Shown: positions 29,076 through 49,810 of the stretch, piece after piece
Layout of the letters: every line of letters starts with the position of its first letter
Numbering within the stretch: position 1 is the first letter of the stretch
Source: an uncultured Parachlamydiaceae bacterium
GTDB taxonomy: Bacteria; Chlamydiota; Chlamydiia; Chlamydiales; Parachlamydiaceae
DNA: 64,000 nt
Assembly: GCA_963742415.1 (NCBI GenBank)
Contig: CAVULX010000003.1
Location: forward strand, 896,001 to 960,000
Direction of reading: 5' to 3'
Program-made: the position numbers and the translations under genes
The notes under the pieces: generated by a model
What the model saw: only the letters and a program-made list of their open reading frames with translations
Told to the model about the DNA's origin: nothing
The model's database searches: none

Positions 29076-31847
29076 TTAGGTCTCTTTAGATACAACCCCT
29101 TTCGTCAATGTGCCCGTCAAATCATTATATCGGGCGTCTTCTTCTGTTGAGGGAGTTGCTTTGATGGGTGGGGTTTCATCTAAACTTATGATCTCTTGCC
29201 CCTCACGATGGGGAACTTTAATGCTGGGAACGCTATATTTATTGGCAACGGATAGGATCCATTTAAATCCTTCACTGTTTCCAAAACCTTTTATCTCTTC
29301 GTACTTTGCCTTTTCTGCTGTTGGGGCAGTTTTTTCCAGGGTTTGCTTGAGATGAATATTAAAAGCTTCAATCAAGGGTGCATATTCCTTGCAAAGCTGT
29401 ACAATCTGCTTCTCCTGATCATCTAAATCCTTAACTTTATTAGTCGCTAACGATTTAAATATTTCATAATAATCATTATCATAGACAGCGCTTATCTCAT
29501 CCATTTTATCTAACCATTCCGCATTATAATTTTTCATTTTGAGGTAATATTGCGGGTATAATTTCTCTGTTATAGGATCTTCTTTAACCTTGTGATGAGG
29601 GTTCTCATTCAAATTTACAATGGCTTCCCTGAGGCCGATCTGGCCGGTAACGGGGTCAGCATCTAATCCATTATATAACCTTGCGGGCAGTGTATTAAGG
29701 CTAATAAAAGCTTCAGGATTAGTTTTTGATAGGTTCGACATATATTCCAGAACATGTCTATCCCTGGCTCTCCGTTCTGCAAGGATCTGCCGTTTGCGTG
29801 CCCATAAAGCAGGGGCATTCATGAACAAACCTATATTTTTAGCATCTTTCTGCATTTCGGGAGAGGGAGCGGTTCGCGTTTTAACAAACATGAGCATATC
29901 TTTGGCGAGTTTTTTGATTTTTTCAGCAGCTCCCCGGTCAATGCAATCTTTACAAGAAGTGTTTGTGTAACGGGCACCGGAAGCTAGTAAAATATAATCT
30001 TGGATCAAGTCGTAAGCATGTTCCATGGCTATTTGCCGTTCTTTGGGAGTCAAAAAATAAAACTTATCGGATGGAAAATGAGCATCTACGACTTTGTCAA
30101 GGATATGCTTAATATGGTCAATGTGAGGGGGCTGATTGTAAGGAGCCGAGATATTAAAAGAAGGGGATTTAAGGATCCCTGCTTTTTCATTGCCAAACAT
30201 GCGGGCTTTAAAATCATATAAAAAATCAGCTCGGCTTTGAACAGCAACGACAGGAAAAGCGTTGGTTCCTTCTTTGTGAACAGCTCTCCAAATTTCTATC
30301 AGCTCTTCCACAGCTTCTGCTTCGGTCGCATGTTTGGATATTTGTTTTTTTAAATGCTTTTCAAGGAGTTGGGCTTGAACATACACTTCTAAATTCTTCC
30401 CTTCCCATAAATGTTCATAATTTTGTTTGAGAGGAGAGTTTGATGAGAGAAGTCGAAAAAAATCTCCTCGTACAGCCATTTCTTCATGTAACTTTTTCCC
30501 CTCTTTATATTCCCGTTGCCAGTAAAAATCGGAATTTTTATCGAGGGTAACAACAGTAAAAAAACCTTTGAACTCTGGATCTTCGGCTAAAGCCTCTAAA
30601 GCTTTGACCCTCAAATCTTCTCTTGCAAATCCGAGAGTTTCCAAGATCCATTTTTTCGTTGATGATTGTTCCGCAGGGGAGCGTCGATCTTGAAGGTTGA
30701 AATAAACAATAGGATCCCCATTCGCTTTTGCAGTTCTTAAAAAAGCTATAAAAGCGGGATTTATTTCGTCGCCGATGGTGGGGGTTGGAGTGCGGATAAA
30801 TGTAAGTTCATTACCATCTGGCATGATCCGGGTATAATACACATTAGGGGGATTGCCATCTTTTATGGGATTAAGATCCATATGTTTGGTGCCCCCTTTG
30901 ATCGAGGAGGCCCATTTTGTCCAAGGGGAAATTTTATATTGGTCATCGGCATTTTCAATTCCCTTAGCAATCCCTTCTGAATTTTGAACTCCTTGATCGA
31001 AATCTCGATAAAAGGCTTCTTCAGGGGAGAGAGATCCATTCCCTTCTACATCTTTTTCTTTATACCCCCCATCCTCCGCGACTTTTTGAGCCACGCTGTT
31101 CATAAAATCGGTCATTTCAATCTTGGTGAAAAGGGCTCGAGCAATTGCATGCAGGGCAGCAATTTCGGGGTTGTTATGCTCTAAGTTTTGCATGGCGATT
31201 TTGTCACGGGGATAACTTTTAAAGTCCATCGTGGAGGTATAGTATTCGCTTCTAAGGGCACGATCATAAGCTTTCATAAAGGCTTTATAACGATCCCTTT
31301 CGTTTGCGAACCCCTCATCAGTAAAAAGGATCCTCAGTACTTCAGCGGTTTGCTGCTGACATTTATTTCGTGCAGGAATAGAAGAATAATGGATTCCCTT
31401 ATCTCGATCTTCTTCTTTTCCTGTTATCCAGAAGTTGATCATCTCTTTTACTTGATCAGAGGATTTGTTGGGCACATGGATCTGCTCCATCATTCCTTTG
31501 CCTATGAAGTTCAGGACTTTTTCATATTTTTGGGTGTGGCGCCAACCGGGGTCAAAGGGATTTCTTGCGTGTTCCCATGCTTTGCTGATCATGTTGATGA
31601 GCACTAAGCCGGCTTTAGCTGCCTGGGGCGGTAAGACTGCGCCTGGGGGGAAATAGGTGACATTTTTGACATTGTCATCGCTAAGAGGCAGAATTCCTGT
31701 GTTGGCGGCTTGTTCCGTTGTTTTTTTTGCAGAAGGAGGAGTTGGAGGTAAAGGGGTGTCTGGAAGAGGGCCTAAATCTTGAAATGCGCCTGAACTTTGA
31801 AAAGAGCCTAAATCTTTGGGTTCGTTTAAATTTCCAGAAGTTACCAT
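29076..31847 (-). CDS. Large effector-like protein with a CX5R phosphatase motif
   Basis: SCKDCIDRG at 29954-29934; Pro-rich N-terminus; GGGAGG RBS supports ATG 31847. Confidence 0.7.
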   Translation of the reverse strand: MVTSGNLNEPKDLGSFQSSGAFQDLGPLPDTPLPPTPPSAKKTTEQAANTGILPLSDDNVKNVTYFPPGAVLPPQAAKAGLVLINMISKAWEHARNPFDPGWRHTQKYEKVLNFIGKGMMEQIHVPNKSSDQVKEMINFWITGKEEDRDKGIHYSSIPARNKCQQQTAEVLRILFTDEGFANERDRYKAFMKAYDRALRSEYYTSTMDFKSYPRDKIAMQNLEHNNPEIAALHAIARALFTKIEMTDFMNSVAQKVAEDGGYKEKDVEGNGSLSPEEAFYRDFDQGVQNSEGIAKGIENADDQYKISPWTKWASSIKGGTKHMDLNPIKDGNPPNVYYTRIMPDGNELTFIRTPTPTIGDEINPAFIAFLRTAKANGDPIVYFNLQDRRSPAEQSSTKKWILETLGFAREDLRVKALEALAEDPEFKGFFTVVTLDKNSDFYWQREYKEGKKLHEEMAVRGDFFRLLSSNSPLKQNYEHLWEGKNLEVYVQAQLLEKHLKKQISKHATEAEAVEELIEIWRAVHKEGTNAFPVVAVQSRADFLYDFKARMFGNEKAGILKSPSFNISAPYNQPPHIDHIKHILDKVVDAHFPSDKFYFLTPKERQIAMEHAYDLIQDYILLASGARYTNTSCKDCIDRGAAEKIKKLAKDMLMFVKTRTAPSPEMQKDAKNIGLFMNAPALWARKRQILAERRARDRHVLEYMSNLSKTNPEAFISLNTLPARLYNGLDADPVTGQIGLREAIVNLNENPHHKVKEDPITEKLYPQYYLKMKNYNAEWLDKMDEISAVYDNDYYEIFKSLATNKVKDLDDQEKQIVQLCKEYAPLIEAFNIHLKQTLEKTAPTAEKAKYEEIKGFGNSEGFKWILSVANKYSVPSIKVPHREGQEIISLDETPPIKATPSTEEDARYNDLTGTLTKGVVSKET

Positions 31848-34987: not shown

Positions 34988-36363
34988 TTATTCATGTTCA
35001 ACATTCATGCTTCTTTTCTCGACATTTTTAATCAACGTCCGTTCCAAAACAACGGTTAACCCCGGTTTAACCTGATTGTCATCCTTTCGGTATTTATTGG
35101 TCAAAAATTCTGTGTGGAGCTTATTTCCTTCCCAGATGACAGGCACTAAGCGGCGAAGGAAGGCGGGAACTTTGGCATTTGTCCAACATTTGGTAATGGG
35201 GGAATCACCTGGAAAGCTACTGTTGAGGAGTGGAGGGCCGATCTGATACTGCCCTGCGGGGAGAGAGATTTGGCAGATTCCGCCCCAAGCTTTTTTCCAC
35301 CCTTTTTGAATCTCGATCCCTGTTTGGTAATGTGAGACATGGACCGTCCAGGCTCCGATTTGATGGGTGCCGAGGTTTAAAGCGTGGGAGTGGAGGAGCG
35401 GTTCCTTGGATTGGTAGGGCAAGAACAGCCGTTTTCTGTCGATGTAAAGCGTGCGGCTTTGCATTTGGATTTGCCGGTCTGCGAGGCCGGTGGAGAGGAG
35501 GCGTGCGGCAGTTTTTAGGCAAAAACGGGAGAGGCACAGGGAGTCTAATTCACAAAATTTTTTTAAAATATAATGGATCTCAAGTGGATGGACTGGATCG
35601 GTTTGGCTTAAATCGAGAAATAGGCCCCATTTCCCTTTTTCAATTGTTTGCAGCAAATGATTACTTTGGAGTTGAGATAATGGTGCCATTCCAGCGCTTC
35701 GGCACCCAATCTTTCTAAATTTTTTTCCACCTGTTTTCCAAATTCTTTCGAAAGGGCAGGTAAAATACGGGTGCGGAATTTTCCCCTTAAAAATCTGGGG
35801 TCCCTGTTTGTTCGATCGTCAAAACCTTTGAGTTGATGCCGTTCAAGCCATTGCAGGATCTCATTTTTGTTGATTTTTAAAAGGGGGCGCCAAAAGAGGA
35901 CATTGTGCACTGTCGCTGTTTCGCGCAAACCGCATAGATACGGCAAGCTGGCTCCTTCAAGGACCCTCTTAAGGACAGTTTCGGCTTGGTCATCGGCATG
36001 GTGGGCAAGTAAAACAGCTTGATAATGATATTTTTGGCATAAATCGGCAAAGAATAGAATCCGGGCATCCCGGCTTGCGGCTTCGAGGTTTCCTTGTAAA
36101 TCTTCTGGAAGCAAGGTTTTGAGGTGGAAAGGGAGACCCTCTTTCTCCACGATGTTTTGAAGGAGGCGGGCTTCTTCGCTGCTTTCTTGCCGCCAACCGT
36201 GATCGACGTGGGCAATCCCTAGTTCAAAGGGGTGTTGTTTCCGGTATTTAAGCAATAGGTGAAAAAGGGCTAAAGAGTCGGGACCTCCGGATAATCCAAG
36301 AAGTAGCGGAGATTTAAAATCGTAATGATTTTGGAAAAATTGAAAAACCGTTTGCTCGATCAT
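34988..36363 (-). CDS. tilS: tRNA(Ile)-lysidine synthetase, split by a frameshift near 35660 (ORFs 35608..36363 and 34988..35689)
   Basis: SGGPDS, HVDHGWR, AHHADDQAET, RPLL in the first ORF; the overlapping ORF supplies the C-terminus; tilS-ftsH order. Confidence 0.88.
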
Positions 36364-39577: not shown

Positions 39578-42094
39578 ATGGATCCATTTGATTTAAGGCA
39601 GTGGGCCGGATTTATCAGCGCAGGGGGAAACCCCTCCCACCCCGCCATTATTGATCAGATTACCATCGACTCCCGCCGAATCGATTCCAATTCAGCCCTT
39701 TTTGTCGCATTGCTGGGGAGTGTTTACGACGGGCATAAATTTGTTCCTCAAGCTGCTAAGACGGGTGCCCGTTATGCTGTGGTAAAAAAGACTTGGGAGG
39801 TTCCCCAACCTTTAGAGCCGATGACTTTGCTGCGTGTGGAGGATCCCCTGAAAGCCTTCCAAGAAATCGCGTATACCTACCGTCGACAAACAAAAGCCAA
39901 AGTCATCAGCATCTCAGGTTCCTATGGGAAAACCATGGTCAAAGATCTTCTTTTCACCATGGTCAACGCTTCTAAATGTGTCGTGGCTTCTCCAGAAAGC
40001 TTTAACAGCCAAATAGGGGTGCCTTTAAGCCTTTTGACGATCAAGAAAGAGCATGAAATCGCTTTTATTGAAGCGGGGATTTCAAAAAAAAATGAAATGG
40101 ATGCCCTGGCAGCCACAATAGCTCCCAATTGCGGCATTCTGACCCATATCGGAAAGAAGCATAGCGCCACCCTTGGAGAACTTCCTGAAGCAGCTACGGA
40201 AATGATGAAACTCTTTCTCAAGCCATTAGAATGGGTAATTTTGCCTAATGACCCGTTATTAGAGCCCCATCTGAACCACTTAAAAGCAGAAAGCCATTTC
40301 TGGAATAAGCCCATCTCCCATTTGCCCCATGCACGCTCTCTCACCAAGGAGCATTCCTCCAAAATGCCTTATCAAGTCGATTTTCCCGATGGAAGCCACT
40401 ACTCAGGGCAAACGACTGAAGGGTTTTATTATTTCCTCGACCTGATCAACATCACGGTCAAAGCTGCCTGGCTTTTGGGAATTTCAGCAGATGAGATCTG
40501 CAAGGTGCTGCGCCATTACCAGCCTGAGCCGATGCGCACAGAAATTTGGAAATCCCCCATAGGGACAACCTTTATCAACGATGTCTATTGTTCCGATCCC
40601 CAATCTGTCGATCAAGCCCTTAAACATTTCGAGCAAACCTCTCAAGGGCGTAAAGTTTTTGTGTTTGGAGGAATGAGGGGAAAAAAACAACACCTTGAAC
40701 ATGATTATCACCACGTTGGTCAAGCGATTCAACGTTCGAAGATCGATTGGCTGATGCTGGTAGGGGACCACCCTTTTGCCTCTTTGGTCGATGAGGTCAG
40801 AACCCATGCCCCCAACGCCGAAATTTCCCTTTGTCCTACTTACCAGGATGCGATTAACCTCATGCGGGCTCGCATTAAGGGGGACGATAATGTTTTGATC
40901 AAAGGGGAAAAAAAAGAGCCTCTAGACGTGCTTACAGAAGCTTTCAATGACAGCGTATGCAATAATCAGTGTATTATCAATCTCGCTGCCATTCAAGCTA
41001 ACATCGAAACTTTGCGCCACAAGCTGAAGAAAGGGACACGCATGATGGTGATGGTTAAAGCGCTCGCTTATGGAACCGACGAGGTGCGGATGGCCAAGTT
41101 TTTAATCACGTGCGGCGTAGACATTTTGGGTGTTTCCTACGTCGATGAAGGGGTGGCGCTCAAGCGTGCAGGGGTCAAGCAATCGATTTTTGTCATCAAC
41201 GCGGCCATGTATGAAGCAGCTAAAGTTGTCAAATGGGGGCTTGAAATAGGGGTCAGCGACAAAGGGTTGATCGAGGCTCTTGCTGCAGAAGCCTCCCGTC
41301 AAAATAAAAAAATCAAAGTCCACCTGCATATAGACACGGGAATGAGCCGCTTCGGATGCCGTCCGGAAAAGGCCTCGGAATTGGCTCACTTCATCATTGA
41401 TTGCCCCTCGTTACAGCTTGAAGGGATCATGACCCACTTTTCTTCAGCGGATAATCCCCAAGATGATCCATTTACGCTCCACCAAGCCGAGGTTTTTGAT
41501 CAGTTGATCCAAGAGGTCCAATTGCGAGGGATTTTTATCCCCTGGAAGCATGCCGCCAATTCAGCTGCGGCCATGCGGTTCGAGTTCCCTAACTACAACA
41601 TGGTCAGGATCGGGTTGGCGGCTTATGGGCTATATGTATCGGAAGCGGCGCGGCAAAAGTTGGAGCTGCGCTTGGCCCTCTCCCTCATCTCTCGGATTGT
41701 AGGAATCAACATCTGCAAGGCGGGGGAGACGATTAGCTATGGAAGAAGCTATGTGGTCCAGCAAGAGACTCAGCGGTTTGCCGTCCTCCCCATCGGTTAT
41801 TTCGATGGGCTCCACCGCAACTACAGCGGAAAGGGGCATGTCATCATCCATGGACAAAAAGCTCCCATGGTGGGGAAAATTTGCATGGACTTCATGATGG
41901 TGGATGTCACCTCAATCCCCAACGCATCTGTGGGGGATTCGGTTCTTATTTTTGGGGAAGATGAGCATGGTCAATACTTGTCGCCGGAAGATTTGGCTAT
42001 GCGGGGCGATTCGATTGTCTACGAACTGATCACATGCTTGGGGCCCCGCATTCAGAGGATCTTTGTCCATGAAGAAGCTCACAAAATTCGATAA
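39578..42094 (+). CDS. alr: MurF-like ligase / alanine racemase fusion
   Basis: N-half IDSRR, DGHKF, SGSYGKT, SFNSQIGVPLSL; C-half VKALAYG (PLP Lys), IDTGMSRFG, MTHF, ISYG, ICMD. Confidence 0.93.
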   Translation: MDPFDLRQWAGFISAGGNPSHPAIIDQITIDSRRIDSNSALFVALLGSVYDGHKFVPQAAKTGARYAVVKKTWEVPQPLEPMTLLRVEDPLKAFQEIAYTYRRQTKAKVISISGSYGKTMVKDLLFTMVNASKCVVASPESFNSQIGVPLSLLTIKKEHEIAFIEAGISKKNEMDALAATIAPNCGILTHIGKKHSATLGELPEAATEMMKLFLKPLEWVILPNDPLLEPHLNHLKAESHFWNKPISHLPHARSLTKEHSSKMPYQVDFPDGSHYSGQTTEGFYYFLDLINITVKAAWLLGISADEICKVLRHYQPEPMRTEIWKSPIGTTFINDVYCSDPQSVDQALKHFEQTSQGRKVFVFGGMRGKKQHLEHDYHHVGQAIQRSKIDWLMLVGDHPFASLVDEVRTHAPNAEISLCPTYQDAINLMRARIKGDDNVLIKGEKKEPLDVLTEAFNDSVCNNQCIINLAAIQANIETLRHKLKKGTRMMVMVKALAYGTDEVRMAKFLITCGVDILGVSYVDEGVALKRAGVKQSIFVINAAMYEAAKVVKWGLEIGVSDKGLIEALAAEASRQNKKIKVHLHIDTGMSRFGCRPEKASELAHFIIDCPSLQLEGIMTHFSSADNPQDDPFTLHQAEVFDQLIQEVQLRGIFIPWKHAANSAAAMRFEFPNYNMVRIGLAAYGLYVSEAARQKLELRLALSLISRIVGINICKAGETISYGRSYVVQQETQRFAVLPIGYFDGLHRNYSGKGHVIIHGQKAPMVGKICMDFMMVDVTSIPNASVGDSVLIFGEDEHGQYLSPEDLAMRGDSIVYELITCLGPRIQRIFVHEEAHKIR

Positions 42095-44342: not shown

Positions 44343-44364
44343 TTTGCAGCTAGAGAGCTGCAAA
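44343..44364. terminator. Hairpin between convergent genes
   Basis: TTTGCAGCT-agag-AGCTGCAAA. Confidence 0.55.
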
Positions 44365-44367
44365 CGG

Positions 44368-46563
44368 CTATTTTGCAGGGAAAACAGGGGTTGCGTGCAA
44401 AATATCTGTTTTAAAGAAATCCCCAAATGCATCGCGGATCACCATAGCAAAATTGTCTTTCCCCAAATGGTCTTTAGCAGATTCGATCGTTCTTAAGGCG
44501 CTGATCATCCGGTTAAATCTTTCAGGCAACACAACGCGCTCCCTTTCTAAGATGGCAGGGGAATAAAGCATTAAATCAAAGTTGTTTTTCTCTGTAAGGT
44601 TGAATTCGGCATTATTAATAATTTTTAGAAACATATAAAGCTGAGCACTGCTGCAAGAGGAAATGTCTACACCGTCTTTGCAAGTGAAGCAGAAAGCTCC
44701 GGGGTTGACAAGTTCAATCAGTTTCAATTGTAGAAACAGATAAAAGATCTCTATGAAGTCCTGCCGGTGCTCACGCAGCAAAATATTCTTATTCGAAAAA
44801 AAGATCCGGTGGATCGTGTCTAGTACCCCATCGACAAAATGGGGAAACAAGGCGCTGCGGATCTGTTCAGGAAAATAAAAACCGGATTGATTATCGCTTA
44901 AGTGCTCTTTAAAATGCTCCAAAAACACATGAGCGTGATTGTCGGCATGATAAGGGGCCAACTGCTGATAAAATTCGGTATCTTTAGTCAAAGAAACCAC
45001 TGTGAGGTGTTTATTAATTTCTTCTAAATGTTGGAGCTCTTCTAAGGCAATAGCTCTTGCATGCTCCCTCCAAGATGTGCGGTCTTGTAAATTGATAAGA
45101 AGGATCTTTTCAATTGTATGATCTGTACAGCATATTCGGACCAAATTTTTAAATTCATCTGTGACGGCGGCTTTATGGATATATTCCTGCAATGTGGGAG
45201 ATGGGAGGCGCAGATGGGATATTTTGACATCATCCAGCCTTAGGGCATAATTTTGCGAAGGGAGGTTTTGCTGGAATAAAGGATCAAATGACAACCGATC
45301 CCCATTCTGCAAAGCATCTAAAATTTTAGTTAAGTGGCCATTGGGATGCCCTTTCAGATATTTGGTTAAGGCGGCATAATCATTAGCTAATCGACCCCAA
45401 AATGTCTGGGCTGCTTTTTCATGGTCAGAAGATCTTGTTTCGTGGGCCTGATTCACAAGATGATGAATGTTGGAAAGAAAATCGGGTTGGAGTTCGGTAA
45501 AAAATCCCAAACACAAACCGCTTAAAATATCTAATAATAATGCAGATAATTTGTTGCGATGTTTAGAGGGATAAACAATGAGCTTTTGGTAGTCCTGAGA
45601 AGCGATCGCTTGGCGTAGAAACATCTGAAAATCGATAAAGTAATCGCGGCAATTTTTTGACGAAACATCCTCTTGATAGTTATGGGGCATGGCACTCAAC
45701 ATCAAAGCCATCAAAGCTTTGTTTTCTAACTCAACGAGCTCCCTATCCTTAAATTTGATAGCTTCCCTATAAAAGCGGTCAATTCGATTGCTTAACACAC
45801 TCAAAATATTTTTAGCTGCTCCTTGATAAACTTGATTTCGCCATATGTCAAGATCTTCGAGGGGGTCGATCTCCTTCTTTAATCTTCCAAATTGTTCCCC
45901 GAAATCGCAAACTAGCTTAATATTTCGCAGCAAACGGGAACTAAAAAAGCGGCTGCCATCCTCTTTGCGGAGAAAGAACAGCTCATATGCCAAATCTTTT
46001 TTTACCGAGTCGAGGTCGACGAAAACATGGGTGGCTTCAATTGGTTTCTTGGCCGGTGTTACTTTAGCCCCTTCTCTTGTTGACCAAGCACGTTGGACTA
46101 GAGCAAAAACCCATCGGCTTAACAGGGTGTCGTCGATTTTTCTGGCAATCCGCCTCAGGTAGAATTCTTGAAGGTTTTTATATTCTTTTAAATCAGTAAT
46201 ACTCTTATTTTTTACTTGATGAAACAACGTGGTATACTTATCCAATTTTTTAGCGGCTTCCCCCACTAAGACCATAATCGTTTTGATCCCTTCGATTGTT
46301 TTTGGGTCTTTAGAGGGCCCTTTCTTATTGTAAACATCGCGTAAATGGTGAAGAATGACCTTAAAGATTTCCCTCATTTTCACCCTATTTTCATCGAAAT
46401 TTTGGGCGTCGAACCACTGAGTGAAATCTGTTGGTTTTCTTGGTTTTTTCTCCCCCTCTTCCCCTCTTTCCATTTCCCAGTCAAATTCCACAATGTTGGA
46501 AAGGGTTTCCACAGCTTCCATCAAAGATAAGGGGGATGAGTCATGTTTTAGTTTTGCGCCCAT
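44368..46563 (-). CDS. Hypothetical protein with a degenerate CX5R-like domain (possibly the conserved chlamydial CT837-type gene)
   Basis: 731 aa; C-terminal half shares motif order with 29076..31847; TCKDGVDI at 44682-44662; CT837 link rests only on position relative to lptF/G. Confidence 0.65.
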   Translation of the reverse strand: MGAKLKHDSSPLSLMEAVETLSNIVEFDWEMERGEEGEKKPRKPTDFTQWFDAQNFDENRVKMREIFKVILHHLRDVYNKKGPSKDPKTIEGIKTIMVLVGEAAKKLDKYTTLFHQVKNKSITDLKEYKNLQEFYLRRIARKIDDTLLSRWVFALVQRAWSTREGAKVTPAKKPIEATHVFVDLDSVKKDLAYELFFLRKEDGSRFFSSRLLRNIKLVCDFGEQFGRLKKEIDPLEDLDIWRNQVYQGAAKNILSVLSNRIDRFYREAIKFKDRELVELENKALMALMLSAMPHNYQEDVSSKNCRDYFIDFQMFLRQAIASQDYQKLIVYPSKHRNKLSALLLDILSGLCLGFFTELQPDFLSNIHHLVNQAHETRSSDHEKAAQTFWGRLANDYAALTKYLKGHPNGHLTKILDALQNGDRLSFDPLFQQNLPSQNYALRLDDVKISHLRLPSPTLQEYIHKAAVTDEFKNLVRICCTDHTIEKILLINLQDRTSWREHARAIALEELQHLEEINKHLTVVSLTKDTEFYQQLAPYHADNHAHVFLEHFKEHLSDNQSGFYFPEQIRSALFPHFVDGVLDTIHRIFFSNKNILLREHRQDFIEIFYLFLQLKLIELVNPGAFCFTCKDGVDISSCSSAQLYMFLKIINNAEFNLTEKNNFDLMLYSPAILERERVVLPERFNRMISALRTIESAKDHLGKDNFAMVIRDAFGDFFKTDILHATPVFPAK

Positions 46564-46756
46564 AGTTCCCTCATTTATTCCAATGTTTATAAACGCTATA
46601 TTTATTATCTCTTTTTTATAATTTTAAAAACAAAATTTTAATAAAATATAATTTTTTTATATTTTGAATAATTAAACTTGATTTGTTAAAATTGATATGC
46701 AAGAAATTCATTTTTCTTGTTTTTTAAATAGATCTCGCATATAAAAAATACTCGTT

Positions 46757-46843
46757 GGAAGAGTGGCAGAGTGGCCGAATGCGTCTGTCTTGAAAACAGA
46801 AGGCGGGGTAACCCGTCCGGGGGTTCGAATCCCTCCTCTTCCG
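46757..46843 (+). tRNA. tRNA-Ser (anticodon TGA)
   Basis: GGAAGAG/CTCTTCC acceptor stem, anticodon arm TCTGT-CTTGAAA-ACAGA, long variable arm, GGTTCGAATCC; CCA not encoded. Confidence 0.96.
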
Positions 46844-46899
46844 AAGTGTTAGCCTACAAATTTGAAGTGTTTAAGAGGGTGTTCACAAGTTCCTTATAC

Positions 46900-47383
46900 T
46901 TAAACTGTTGAAATGCCCTCAATATCAGAAGGGTGAATTCGAAGAGGCTTATTTCTAATTTCGTGCTTTTTCTTTTTTAATTCATTGTTTGAGTCCAGCT
47001 CATTGTAAGTATTTCTGAAAACTTCATTGCTGGCATCTAAAAAATTAAGGATAGAAAGTCTGACATGAAGCTCTGTTGAAGGGGTAATCAAAGCAAAATC
47101 ATTTTCTTTAGACTTCCCATTTCGTTACAGCTTGACGCGTCTGACCTAAGTGCTGTGCAAATTGTGTATAATTCATTTTAAAATACTGTCGGATAAAGCG
47201 CACTTCATTACCGGTGAGAGGAATGGTTTTTTTTGCCAAAAGTTCAATTACAACACGTTTTAACGTATTATAGTTGACATCGGCCATCTCTTCCCCCCAG
47301 TATTTTTTCATAGGAAAGTTATATAAGTCGATGGGGAAGCCTAATCCATGATAAGTGAACTTTTTTTCTTTTGTCTTGCTCAT
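46900..47383 (-). pseudogene. XRE-HTH antitoxin-like regulator (MqsA/HigA-like), frameshifted near 47112
   Basis: LTGNEVRFIRQYFKMNYTQFAQHLGQTRQAVTKWE; removing one base after WE joins it to SKENDFALITPSTELHVRL (ORF 46900..47091). Confidence 0.75.
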
Positions 47384-48287: not shown

Positions 48288-49810
48288 TCAGAAGCGAACG
48301 GTCATATCGGCGCCGAAGATGATCGTGCCTTGACGTTTGCCAAGGTCAAAGGCGCGGTGTTGCCAATTGCGGTAATAACCAATTTCGGGGCGGATTTGGA
48401 CAATTTCATTGAAGTTATAGGTCAATCCAATGGCATGGCTTGTATAGGTTCCCTTGAAACCCGATCGCTCACCATCTGCATCTCGCCAAACTTCATTGCG
48501 GACGGTGATAAAGCTCTTTATCGGAAAACTTGAACATGGTGTAGTTAACCACGCCATAAGTCCATGTGGTTCCGGGAATATTGGGGCCGATCCCGCCGCC
48601 TCCACCAAAGGATTCAGCAGGACCTGCACTGGGCGTACCTCCTACAACGGCATCGCGCTGCCACATGAAATAGCCTTCGGTTTTGGTGTGGATATCATCA
48701 TTGAATTTATGCTGCCATGTACCGACCAGATAATTGAAGTTATCATGACCCAATCGCTGTCCATACATATGGAAGCGGCGAAACTTGGCGCTATTGATGG
48801 AATTCAGCACCAGGTAGATGGAATCATTGTTGTCACATGAAACCCAGCGCACGCCAAACATGCCTGTCGGAACGGCTCCCTTATACCAGGGAGCCATGTC
48901 CGTTCCTGCGTGAATGGCTGCTTGAACTGTCCAGTATTTATTAAGCATGATTGTCAGCCATCACCCCTGTTTGAGTATAGGTGTCAAAGGTAAAAAGTAT
49001 GGAATGGGTTCCCATGTAATTGTCTGGAGCAAATTGCGTTTCAATATCGGGACAAGCGATCCATCGTCCGACGCGTACAATCATTCCTTGGGCCACCCAA
49101 GGAGTATAAATGTCGATATATTGTTCTGTGAAATCATACCCATACAGATTGTTATGTTTTAATAATTGGGCGCTTGTCCACCCTCCGGCAGTCATATAGC
49201 GATAATCGATTCCATATAAGAAGGTGGAACGAAAACCAATGTCGATGTGATCTGTCTGGACAGAATCGACTTGTCTTTCAAGACGGAAATACAAATTGAT
49301 CTAGTTCAACTCTGATTGGGGACAATCCAGTAGGAATCGGGGGAATTCGAATTTTTGCAGTTGCTGAGGTTTCCGGAACCATTGACCCATCCATAGGCTT
49401 TGAACGCTGCTTTTTTTGATCGCCTCCCCCCAGGGAGTTTTATAGATGGCTTTCATCAAGGGATAGACGGTATCGCTCGGCGGCACTCCAACTAAAGGAT
49501 AGCCTTGATATTCGCCGGATGGAAATGGTGGAGAGGGAAAGGGGGCAGGCAGTGCACGCCTGGGAGGTTCTTTGTCTTCAGACTTTTCATCTTTTTTCTC
49601 ATTTTGCTCTTGGCTCTTACACTCAGCTTGCTGGCCAACCTGATAGTCCTTGTCCCAACTTCTGAATGAAAAGCTCCCATCGGTGCATTCGACAAAATAC
49701 CCATCCGTCACTTCTTCAATTTCTTCAGCTCCAATTTTTGCAGCTACGAACATCGAGATGATAAGGAACGAGGCTAACCAGCATGTGTTTTTAAATAAGG
49801 TGATTCTCAT
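48288..49810 (-). pseudogene. Outer-membrane beta-barrel porin (DUF1597/bbp2-like), multiply frameshifted
   Basis: Signal peptide, then consecutive fragments in different frames (FRLERQVD, GIDYRY, IVRVGRW, HAIGLTYN, IRPEIGY) ending in terminal Phe; about four shifts. Confidence 0.75.

Follow-up and report, generated by a model that had tools for sequence, protein, structure and literature searches.

We find that a gene for a protein of 731 amino acids (aa), on the reverse strand of a 64,000-nucleotide stretch from an uncultured Parachlamydiaceae bacterium (assembly GCA_963742415.1, contig CAVULX010000003.1, positions 896,001 to 960,000; this whole stretch is called the window, and positions count from its first letter), encodes what is likely, judged from its sequence and from structure models, a pseudophosphatase. 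The protein belongs to the arginine-less branch of an undescribed superfamily, a branch that is new and phylum-wide. The reading we favour, with a probability of about 0.65, is that it is the CT837-type member, conserved throughout the phylum, of an unnamed superfamily with a protein tyrosine phosphatase (PTP) fold, that the P-loop arginine was lost while the pocket was kept, and that the protein works as a non-catalytic ligand binder, as a sensor, scaffold or regulator. We take it to be a non-catalytic protein with a ligand-binding pocket because the whole family is without the arginine and one lineage has lost the nucleophile too, while almost every genome keeps the family, with a lysine, two aspartates and an R-x-R loop invariant.

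Homology to a CX5R paralogue and the predicted fold

The window encodes a second member of the superfamily, a 932-aa protein with an intact CX5R loop. BLASTP aligns residues 304-534 of the 731-aa protein with residues 191-453 of the 932-aa protein (E 5e-10) and, in a second segment, residues 575-685 with 590-704 (E 6e-4). The seven motif pairs quoted in a preliminary description of this DNA, which had proposed the homology from the letters, all occur in both translations, in the same order and within these segments. When a profile built from 37 relatives of the 731-aa protein (A2) is compared by hhalign with an alignment of the 932-aa protein and its two closest relatives (A1, n=3), the probability is 99.6% (E 6.5e-25) over 384 columns, residues 306-696 against 193-715, and CKDCIDR of the 932-aa protein (C641-R647) is aligned to CKDGVDI of the 731-aa protein (C628-I634). 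The proposed replacement of the CX5R arginine by isoleucine is thus what the aligned loop reads, C628-KDGVD-I634. A profile of the whole superfamily (A3), used for searching genomes for paralogues, scores the 731-aa gene at E 1.8e-123, and the 731-aa protein has 663 relatives at E<=1e-3. On this evidence from aligned sequences the two proteins are true remote paralogues, far beyond chance.

Neither protein is placed by existing annotation. Pfam and NCBIfam scans of both returned nothing above noise, and sequence searches of the PDB with the two proteins and with profiles A1, A2 and a further profile, A4, gave no meaningful match. The fold was approached through models, an AlphaFold2 model of the 731-aa protein and a model of the 932-aa domain (residues 95-735) made from a 102-sequence alignment, both compared with known structures by Foldseek against the PDB and by exhaustive VIA-align. 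The 731-aa model has a mean predicted local distance difference test score (pLDDT) of 75, with residues 230-731 mostly at 84-97; CKDGVDIS follows strand 623-627 and leads into helix 634-649, as in the strand-loop-helix of cysteine phosphatases. VIA-align returned 50 rows for this model. The C-terminal half is covered by 36 of them, every one a PTP-fold structure, with Z up to 9.5 (RPTP-alpha 9.5 over 211 aligned residues, PTPN3 9.3, SHP2 9.3), and the remaining 14 match helical residues 1-222 only. The 932-aa domain model is confident throughout (pLDDT 88.4, predicted template modelling score 0.91), and all 50 of its rows are PTP-fold structures, with Z 6.6-10.2. Because the VIA-align lists are uniform and the motif sits on the right structural element, the models support a cysteine-phosphatase (PTP) fold for the domain that the two proteins share, and the earlier suggestion that the comparison would give a fold to an unannotated protein is borne out by the lists for both models.

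The N-terminal part of the 731-aa protein lies outside the homologous region. Invariant columns run from D183 to G222 in the 37-relative profile, and residues 181-222 hold 14 of them. The extreme N-terminus is poorly modelled, as are residues 139-188 and 208-230 (pLDDT <50). Residues of about 142-300 (window 45664-46140, reverse strand) are strongly conserved, whereas AlphaFold2 gives a pLDDT below 50 within 139-230; this region may fold only upon binding a partner. An atlas search with residues 1-300 gave no usable match.

The arginine-less loop and its pocket

Residues were counted in 120 database relatives of the 731-aa protein and 80 open reading frames (ORFs) from related genomic loci, 200 sequences that yield 187 unique C-terminal domains. 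Tabulated across the family, position 634 is never arginine (0/183 non-redundant members), so that the substitution first noticed in one protein holds throughout. The residues found there are isoleucine (88), valine (48), threonine (16), alanine (9), leucine (6), serine (4), methionine, cysteine and asparagine (3 each) and glycine, aspartate and lysine (1 each). Around this position the loop is nearly fixed: K629, D630 and D633 are each present in 183/183 members, and position 628 is cysteine in 180/184 and serine in 4/184, these being environmental members. R674 and R676, in the loop between the two helices that follow the P-loop helix, are each found in 181/181 members; their counterparts in the Arg-bearing clade stand at 55% and 88%. 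At +46/+48 from the cysteine, this R-x-R would correspond to the Q or TI loop of PTPs, which borders the active site, and PTP topology would then put R674 and R676 near the site, as candidates for pocket lining.

A FastTree phylogeny of 180 domains contains 139 with the arginine. The 41 without it form one clade (Shimodaira-Hasegawa-like support 0.999) that has no Arg-bearing sequence inside. With a midpoint root this clade is sister to a 117-tip Arg-bearing clade that includes the 932-aa protein (support 0.878), and it is nested within further Arg-bearing groups. The simplest reading of these sequences is a single ancient loss of the P-loop arginine. Other positions distinguish the clade as well. 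The residue three before the cysteine is asparagine in 92% of Arg-bearing members versus mostly serine in the arginine-less clade; a loop of about 11 residues after NLQDR, found in most Arg-bearing relatives, is absent from the clade; and Q459, W498 and K614 are fixed in it.

From these patterns we infer the following course of events. The active relatives would be similar to phosphoinositide-phosphatase effectors and have a C-K-D-x-I-D-R-[GA] loop. A single change in an ancestor would have removed the P-loop arginine, the asparagine three before the cysteine and the nearby loop changing too, and in the small-genome lineage described below the nucleophilic cysteine would additionally have become serine. 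Hydrolysis of phosphate esters was most likely lost in the 731-aa family. The pocket, intact in its invariant lysine, two aspartates and R-x-R loop, would bind a ligand, probably a phosphorylated lipid or protein, and the R-x-R loop could give positive charge for an anionic ligand. Needing no active paralogue, the protein would serve, within the bacterium or on its surface, as a sensor, scaffold or regulator. What marks a pseudophosphatase is found here: the fold is kept, the arginine is replaced in all members, the cysteine is lost in one lineage, and the family is kept in 374/400 genomes of the phylum.

Several observations weigh against the pseudophosphatase reading and some of them suggest an enzyme instead. 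As to the fold, neither model has a Foldseek match in the PDB at E<=0.001 (among the weak, non-significant top rows for the 731-aa model are MTMR2, SidP, SopB, MTMR1 and Cdc14), and VIA-align gives moderate Z values of 8-10, little higher than the background that the tool states. As to the tree, its weak points are the midpoint root and the sampling of sequences by one profile search. As to the loop, the cysteine is kept in all but those four environmental members, and lysine and aspartate reach 92% and 81% in the Arg-bearing clade versus 100% in the arginine-less family; such strict conservation of cysteine, lysine and both aspartates is the same pattern as a working non-canonical active site would show. 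R674, R676 or K629 are candidates for taking the place of the missing arginine. The protein could accordingly still be an enzyme in which [C/S]-K-D-x-x-D and R-x-R form a non-canonical site, with Lys629 or Arg674/676 replacing the arginine or with some other hydrolytic or transfer chemistry; conservation of the pocket above that of the Arg-bearing clade speaks for this, and the fixed, clade-specific Q459, K614 and W498 suggest a site that is remodelled, not decaying. We nevertheless consider an enzyme unlikely. The nucleophile position is serine in 5/5 small-genome orthologues, in addition to the 4 environmental members, and no arginine was gained specifically in the clade, R674 and R676 being present in Arg-bearing relatives too. 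In PTPs a change of the cysteine to serine, or loss of the P-loop arginine, each abolishes or greatly cuts catalysis.

The pseudophosphatase reading draws on a superfamily whose other members keep the arginine. A HMMER search with profile A1 of 1.84 billion cluster representatives matches 745 of them at E<=1e-3 and 288 at E<=1e-10, with protein lengths from about 200 to 1,900 aa, and C-K-D-x-I-D-R-[GA] is found in most of the best 150 of the 745. A word-index search gave 3 proteins with the 932-aa protein as query and 5 with profile A4, numbers that carry little information on range. No Pfam family was matched consistently by 70 members scanned. Among 20 representatives that were looked up are Chlamydiales bacterium STE3 and a Pseudobdellovibrionaceae/Zetaproteobacteria metagenome-assembled genome, and Chlamydiota prevail in the atlas clusters closest to the 731-aa protein. 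Two leads below the atlas threshold for the 731-aa protein are IpgD (0.84) and the SidP-type PI_PP (0.81). The loop chemistry of the superfamily, a lysine after the cysteine and an aspartate directly before the arginine, suggests that members with the arginine are probably phosphatases of lipids (phosphoinositides). The CKDxIDR superfamily is thus large, absent from Pfam, and found in environmental chlamydiae and some other bacteria, and it supplies candidate phosphoinositide phosphatases; the literature searches that we made turned up no chlamydial phosphoinositide phosphatase. One RhoGAP domain was detected among 24 long or short relatives scanned against Pfam. It belongs to P0133, a metagenomic relative of 1181 aa that has CKDCIDRGG and a C-terminal RhoGAP domain (PF00620, E 6.7e-16), an eukaryote-like architecture reminiscent of effectors.

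Among known systems, SidF and SidP resemble the proteins here in being large bacterial proteins whose PTP fold carries long helical insertions. SidP gives the longest alignment with the 731-aa model (Z 8.7, rmsd 5.2, 264 residues) and reaches Z 9.3 over 237 residues with the 932-aa model; classical PTPs score about as high, so that these values do not set the SidF/SidP type apart. According to the accessible part of the source, SidF has Asp650 on its P-loop beside Arg651 (PMC6795519), and the superfamily likewise has an aspartate before the arginine position, and a lysine after the cysteine; the invariant Asp633, a candidate for the general acid, has the loop position of Asp650. In contrast, no sequence relation to SidF or SidP was detected, Foldseek ranks both without significance, and the arginine is absent from the 731-aa family. 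Of the SidF/SidP-type Pfam domains PF18363 (the SidP insertion domain) and PF18365, the first was sought across the whole genome, with 0 matches at E<=1, and neither the 731-aa nor the 932-aa protein has any Pfam match. SopB/IpgD (PDB 8JZL; PF05925) aligns at Z 8.2 over 228 residues with the 731-aa model and at Z 9.0 over 230 residues with the 932-aa model, but again no Pfam match connects it with the proteins here, and its atlas lead is below the tool's evidence level. The SopB/IpgD P-loop also has a lysine after its cysteine.

Myotubularins likewise combine a lipid-phosphatase PTP fold with extra helices (MTMR2, MTMR6 and MTMR8 structures). MTMR2 aligns with the 731-aa model at Z 8.4 over 221 residues and with the 932-aa model at Z 8.7 over 227 residues (rmsd 4.3). 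The myotubularin P-loop is rich in aspartate, CSDGWDR, and the family has conserved dead members that act as regulators. Unlike myotubularins, the 731-aa and 932-aa proteins have neither PH-GRAM nor any other Pfam match, so that the likeness is one of fold only; and dead myotubularins work with active paralogues, whereas the 731-aa type is alone in 9/15 genomes. STYX (PDB 2R0B), at Z 7.2 with both models, is a minimal domain of about 150 residues that loses the cysteine and not the arginine, in contrast to a domain set within a 731-aa protein with a conserved N-terminal half. STYX keeps the PTP fold with one catalytic residue replaced and acts by binding, and together with the dead myotubularins it is a precedent for non-catalytic binding. 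Another case is the IP4P domain of P-Rex1, which the accessible text of PMC6795519 describes as a SidF-like pseudophosphatase without detectable activity, its vestigial site repurposed for protein binding. P-Rex1 (PDB 7SYF) aligns at Z 6.8 with the 731-aa model and 6.7 with the 932-aa model. By analogy it would be the precedent for a repurposed vestigial phosphatase site, with the differences that its cysteine and arginine are kept, that it is inactive for other reasons, and that it belongs to a eukaryotic RhoGEF.

Distribution, the CT837 link and possible partners

Profile A2 (E<=1e-5) matches the 731-aa family in 374/400 genomes sampled across the phylum (one further genome was left unscored), among them 317/334 good-quality genomes, 200/212 genera and 29/29 genomes of one family with small genomes (f4, 1.0-1.4 Mb). 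The protein is thus a core chlamydial protein, as had been surmised from the window. Orthologues of the small-genome family have open frames of 656-736 aa; in 5/5 the cysteine position is serine, the arginine position is not arginine, and the R-x-R loop is kept, the loops reading SKDGLDY in four and SKDALDG in one. Three orthologues elsewhere have internal stops, G234:C1:2743134-2745341 (3 stops), G206:C1:1420259-1421590 (2) and G236:C32:2129-4276 (1); these could be pseudogenes or assembly errors.

One 1.0-Mb genome of this family has the 656-aa gene between the phenylalanyl-tRNA synthetase alpha-chain gene (pheS) and a divergent LptF/LptG permease gene. This order, pheS, the 656-aa gene and lptF-G, is presumably that of CT836-CT837-CT838 in Chlamydia trachomatis. 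An lptF/lptG pair also lies in the window, 5 kb from the 731-aa gene. The accessible part of PMC3048545 lists CT837 with 658 aa and hydrophobic segments [543-561]12[573-592], and predicts it as an inclusion membrane (Inc) protein on that basis. The 656-aa orthologue has a hydropathy peak at 541-559, and its SKDGLDY loop starts at residue 568. Gene order, protein length and the place of the hydrophobic segments make the 731-aa family the probable CT837 orthologue group. The preliminary description's guess of CT837 agrees with these three features and falls short of a proven identity.

The accessible texts of PMC7482065, PMC4652624 and PMC10418237 place CT837/CTL0209 in the sigma-54 regulon (4.54-fold) and in a virulence-gene network, and report it as down on GrgA depletion. 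The protein is phylum-conserved; in C. trachomatis it is expressed late and controlled by sigma-54 and GrgA, and the papers found still label it a 'putative inclusion membrane protein', with no fold or function. Full-text searches on CT837, CTL0209 and Chlamydia pseudophosphatases, covering main texts, found no paper that gives the protein a phosphatase fold, and no phosphatase assay was found in the literature on CT837/CTL0209.

Is the CT837 type then an Inc protein, secreted by the type III system and anchored by a bilobed hydrophobic hairpin? The prediction rests on the two hydrophobic segments near the C-terminus (PMC3048545), and the label is repeated in the accessible parts of later papers (PMC7482065, PMC4652624, PMC10418237). 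Chlamydial Inc proteins are alike in having two hydrophobic stretches near the C-terminus, and late, sigma-54-linked expression in C. trachomatis is a further point in common (PMC3048545 and PMC7482065, as far as their accessible text goes). In contrast, the hydrophobic stretches of the CT837 type lie to the two sides of the P-loop, within a globular domain that is modelled with confidence. The segment 541-559 of the 656-aa orthologue and the helix that follows border the SKDGLDY loop; given that the peak spans 541-559 and the loop starts at 568, the 'bilobed domain' would be the buried helix and strand before the degenerate P-loop together with the helix after it. The same elements of the 731-aa model belong to a globular domain with pLDDT of about 90-97. 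The 731-aa protein has no bilobed hydrophobic domain, that is, two transmembrane helices with a short loop; its hydropathy peaks, at residues 340 and 606, reach just 1.63 and 1.30 and fall in helices of the globular fold whose modelling is confident. CT837 was a candidate in a type III secretion screen, and the accessible part of that source has no result for it (PMC3931295). Evidence of secretion is absent for CT837 in the accessible part of PMC13251465, where it is 'not secreted' in the single working assay and the overall verdict is 'unable to conclude'. We regard an Inc protein as highly improbable, and the long-standing 'putative Inc' annotation of the CT837 type is corrected here to that of what is probably a binding or regulatory protein. 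Its placement in a phosphatase fold shifts the questions from membrane topology to lipid or phospho-ligand binding and interaction partners.

Does the 731-aa protein act alone or beside an active paralogue? The preliminary description had seen an active/inactive pair in the two genes of the window, and one may picture the 731-aa protein as the dead partner of the 932-aa CX5R protein, in a heterodimer that regulates or localises the paralogue in the manner of myotubularins. The two genes are 14 kb apart, and a related genome (G319) has the same pair, as open frames of 907 and 751 aa, also 14 kb apart; dead myotubularins do pair with active ones. Yet the two genes are not co-transcribed, ftsH, tilS, lptFG and others lying in between. 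The 932-aa type is rare, 3 proteins in the word-index search including its two close relatives, and on this sequence evidence appears lineage-restricted. Nor is it the one active candidate: the source genome (assembly of 2.69 Mb in 4 contigs, 84% complete) has five superfamily members, the 731-aa protein and four CX5R paralogues, three of them elsewhere than in the window. We searched 15 chlamydial genomes (5 of the small-genome family and 10 other complete ones) with profile A3, scoring every first-look candidate. In 9/15 the arginine-less member is the sole superfamily member, namely in 5/5 of the small-genome family and in 4/10 of the others (G099, G253, G206 and G256); the remaining 6/15 have one to three further members. 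Given that 9/15 genomes are without any paralogue, the core function of the 731-aa family cannot depend on an active one. The pair is thus not general, and partnering an active paralogue is not supported as a general explanation; for this organism we hold it to be improbable.

One extension of the favoured reading is put forward tentatively, as a possibility with the odds against it. The pocket could be a dedicated ligand-sensing or non-canonical catalytic site in late development, for example one that reads a phosphorylated envelope or host lipid, and the Arg-bearing relatives, four in this genome and one elsewhere fused to RhoGAP, could be unrecognised phosphoinositide-phosphatase effectors of environmental chlamydiae.

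Surroundings of the gene

The 731-aa gene seems to be a solitary one; a GNAT acetyltransferase gene shares its strand but is found further upstream. No sigma-54 -24/-12 pattern occurs in the upstream region 46564-47100, and the window as a whole has 42 matches versus 48.9 expected by chance. The signals found near the gene and the features discussed above are collected in the table.

Table. Location of the 731-aa gene, its protein segments, its paralogues and nearby signals (window positions unless a locus is named)
Feature	Position	Strand	Basis or remark
731-aa protein gene (P0001)	44368..46563	-	ORF and translation; arginine-less member of the phosphatase-fold superfamily
N-terminal ~300 residues, family-specific, unaligned to 932-aa paralogue	45664..46563	-	Conserved sequence; 139-230 modelled poorly
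Region homologous to 932-aa paralogue, residues 306-696 (helical domain, then phosphatase-fold domain)	44476..45648	-	hhalign, BLASTP
PTP-like domain, ~residues 430-716	44416..45276	-	pLDDT mostly 84-97; VIA-align rows
NLQDRTSW motif, residues 491-498, after strand 487-491	45070..45093	-	Common to paralogue (NLQDRRS)
Degenerate P-loop C628-K-D-G-V-D-I634-S635	44659..44682	-	Between strand 623-627 and helix 634-649
R674-E-R676, loop between two helices after P-loop helix	44536..44544	-	Invariant Arg pair; candidate pocket lining
Sigma-70-like promoter match, weak, 9/12, ~100 nt upstream of start codon	46661..46689	-	Consensus match alone
GC-rich terminator-like hairpin between convergent 171-aa membrane-like ORF and 731-aa gene	44343..44364	+
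932-aa paralogue gene (P0002), intact CX5R loop	29076..31874	-	ORF; between pnp and ftsH
P-loop C641-K-D-C-I-D-R647-G648 of 932-aa paralogue	29931..29954	-	Invariant in 3/3 close relatives
481-aa paralogue, CKNTVDR, signal-peptide-like N-terminus	L082 895-2340, outside window	+	No Pfam match
429-aa paralogue, CEFTIDR, signal-peptide-like N-terminus	L083 979-2268, outside window	+	No Pfam match
840-aa paralogue, CKEGVDRT	L089 385-2907, outside window	-	No Pfam match

A 105-aa ORF runs antisense to the 731-aa gene (window 45845-46162, forward strand). The frame is open in 12/80 related loci, and conservation of the coding sequence opposite most likely explains it.

Neighbours were compared across 80 related loci with flanks of up to 6 kb. 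The recurrent ones are an M32 carboxypeptidase (48 loci), a Mur-ligase/alanine-racemase fusion (40), LptG (25) and LptF (20). We rejected them as evidence of a shared function; because these neighbours are convergent or divergent, they reflect inherited gene order. In the window the fusion is an 838-aa protein (39578-42094, forward strand) that joins a Mur ligase (PF01225, PF08245, PF02875) to an alanine racemase (PF01168, PF00842).

Two other places in the window hold what may be broken genes, both on the reverse strand. A TilS-like PP-loop ORF (35608-36363) overlaps by 82 nt, in another frame, a 233-aa ORF (34988-35689) that has no Pfam match; at related loci the two group with one and the same ORF family, and the split across 34988-36363 may be a frameshift. 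At 48493-49810 lie three consecutive short ORFs, the middle one of which matches the porin BBP2 (PF07642, E 1.1e-8), and this segment may be a disrupted porin gene.

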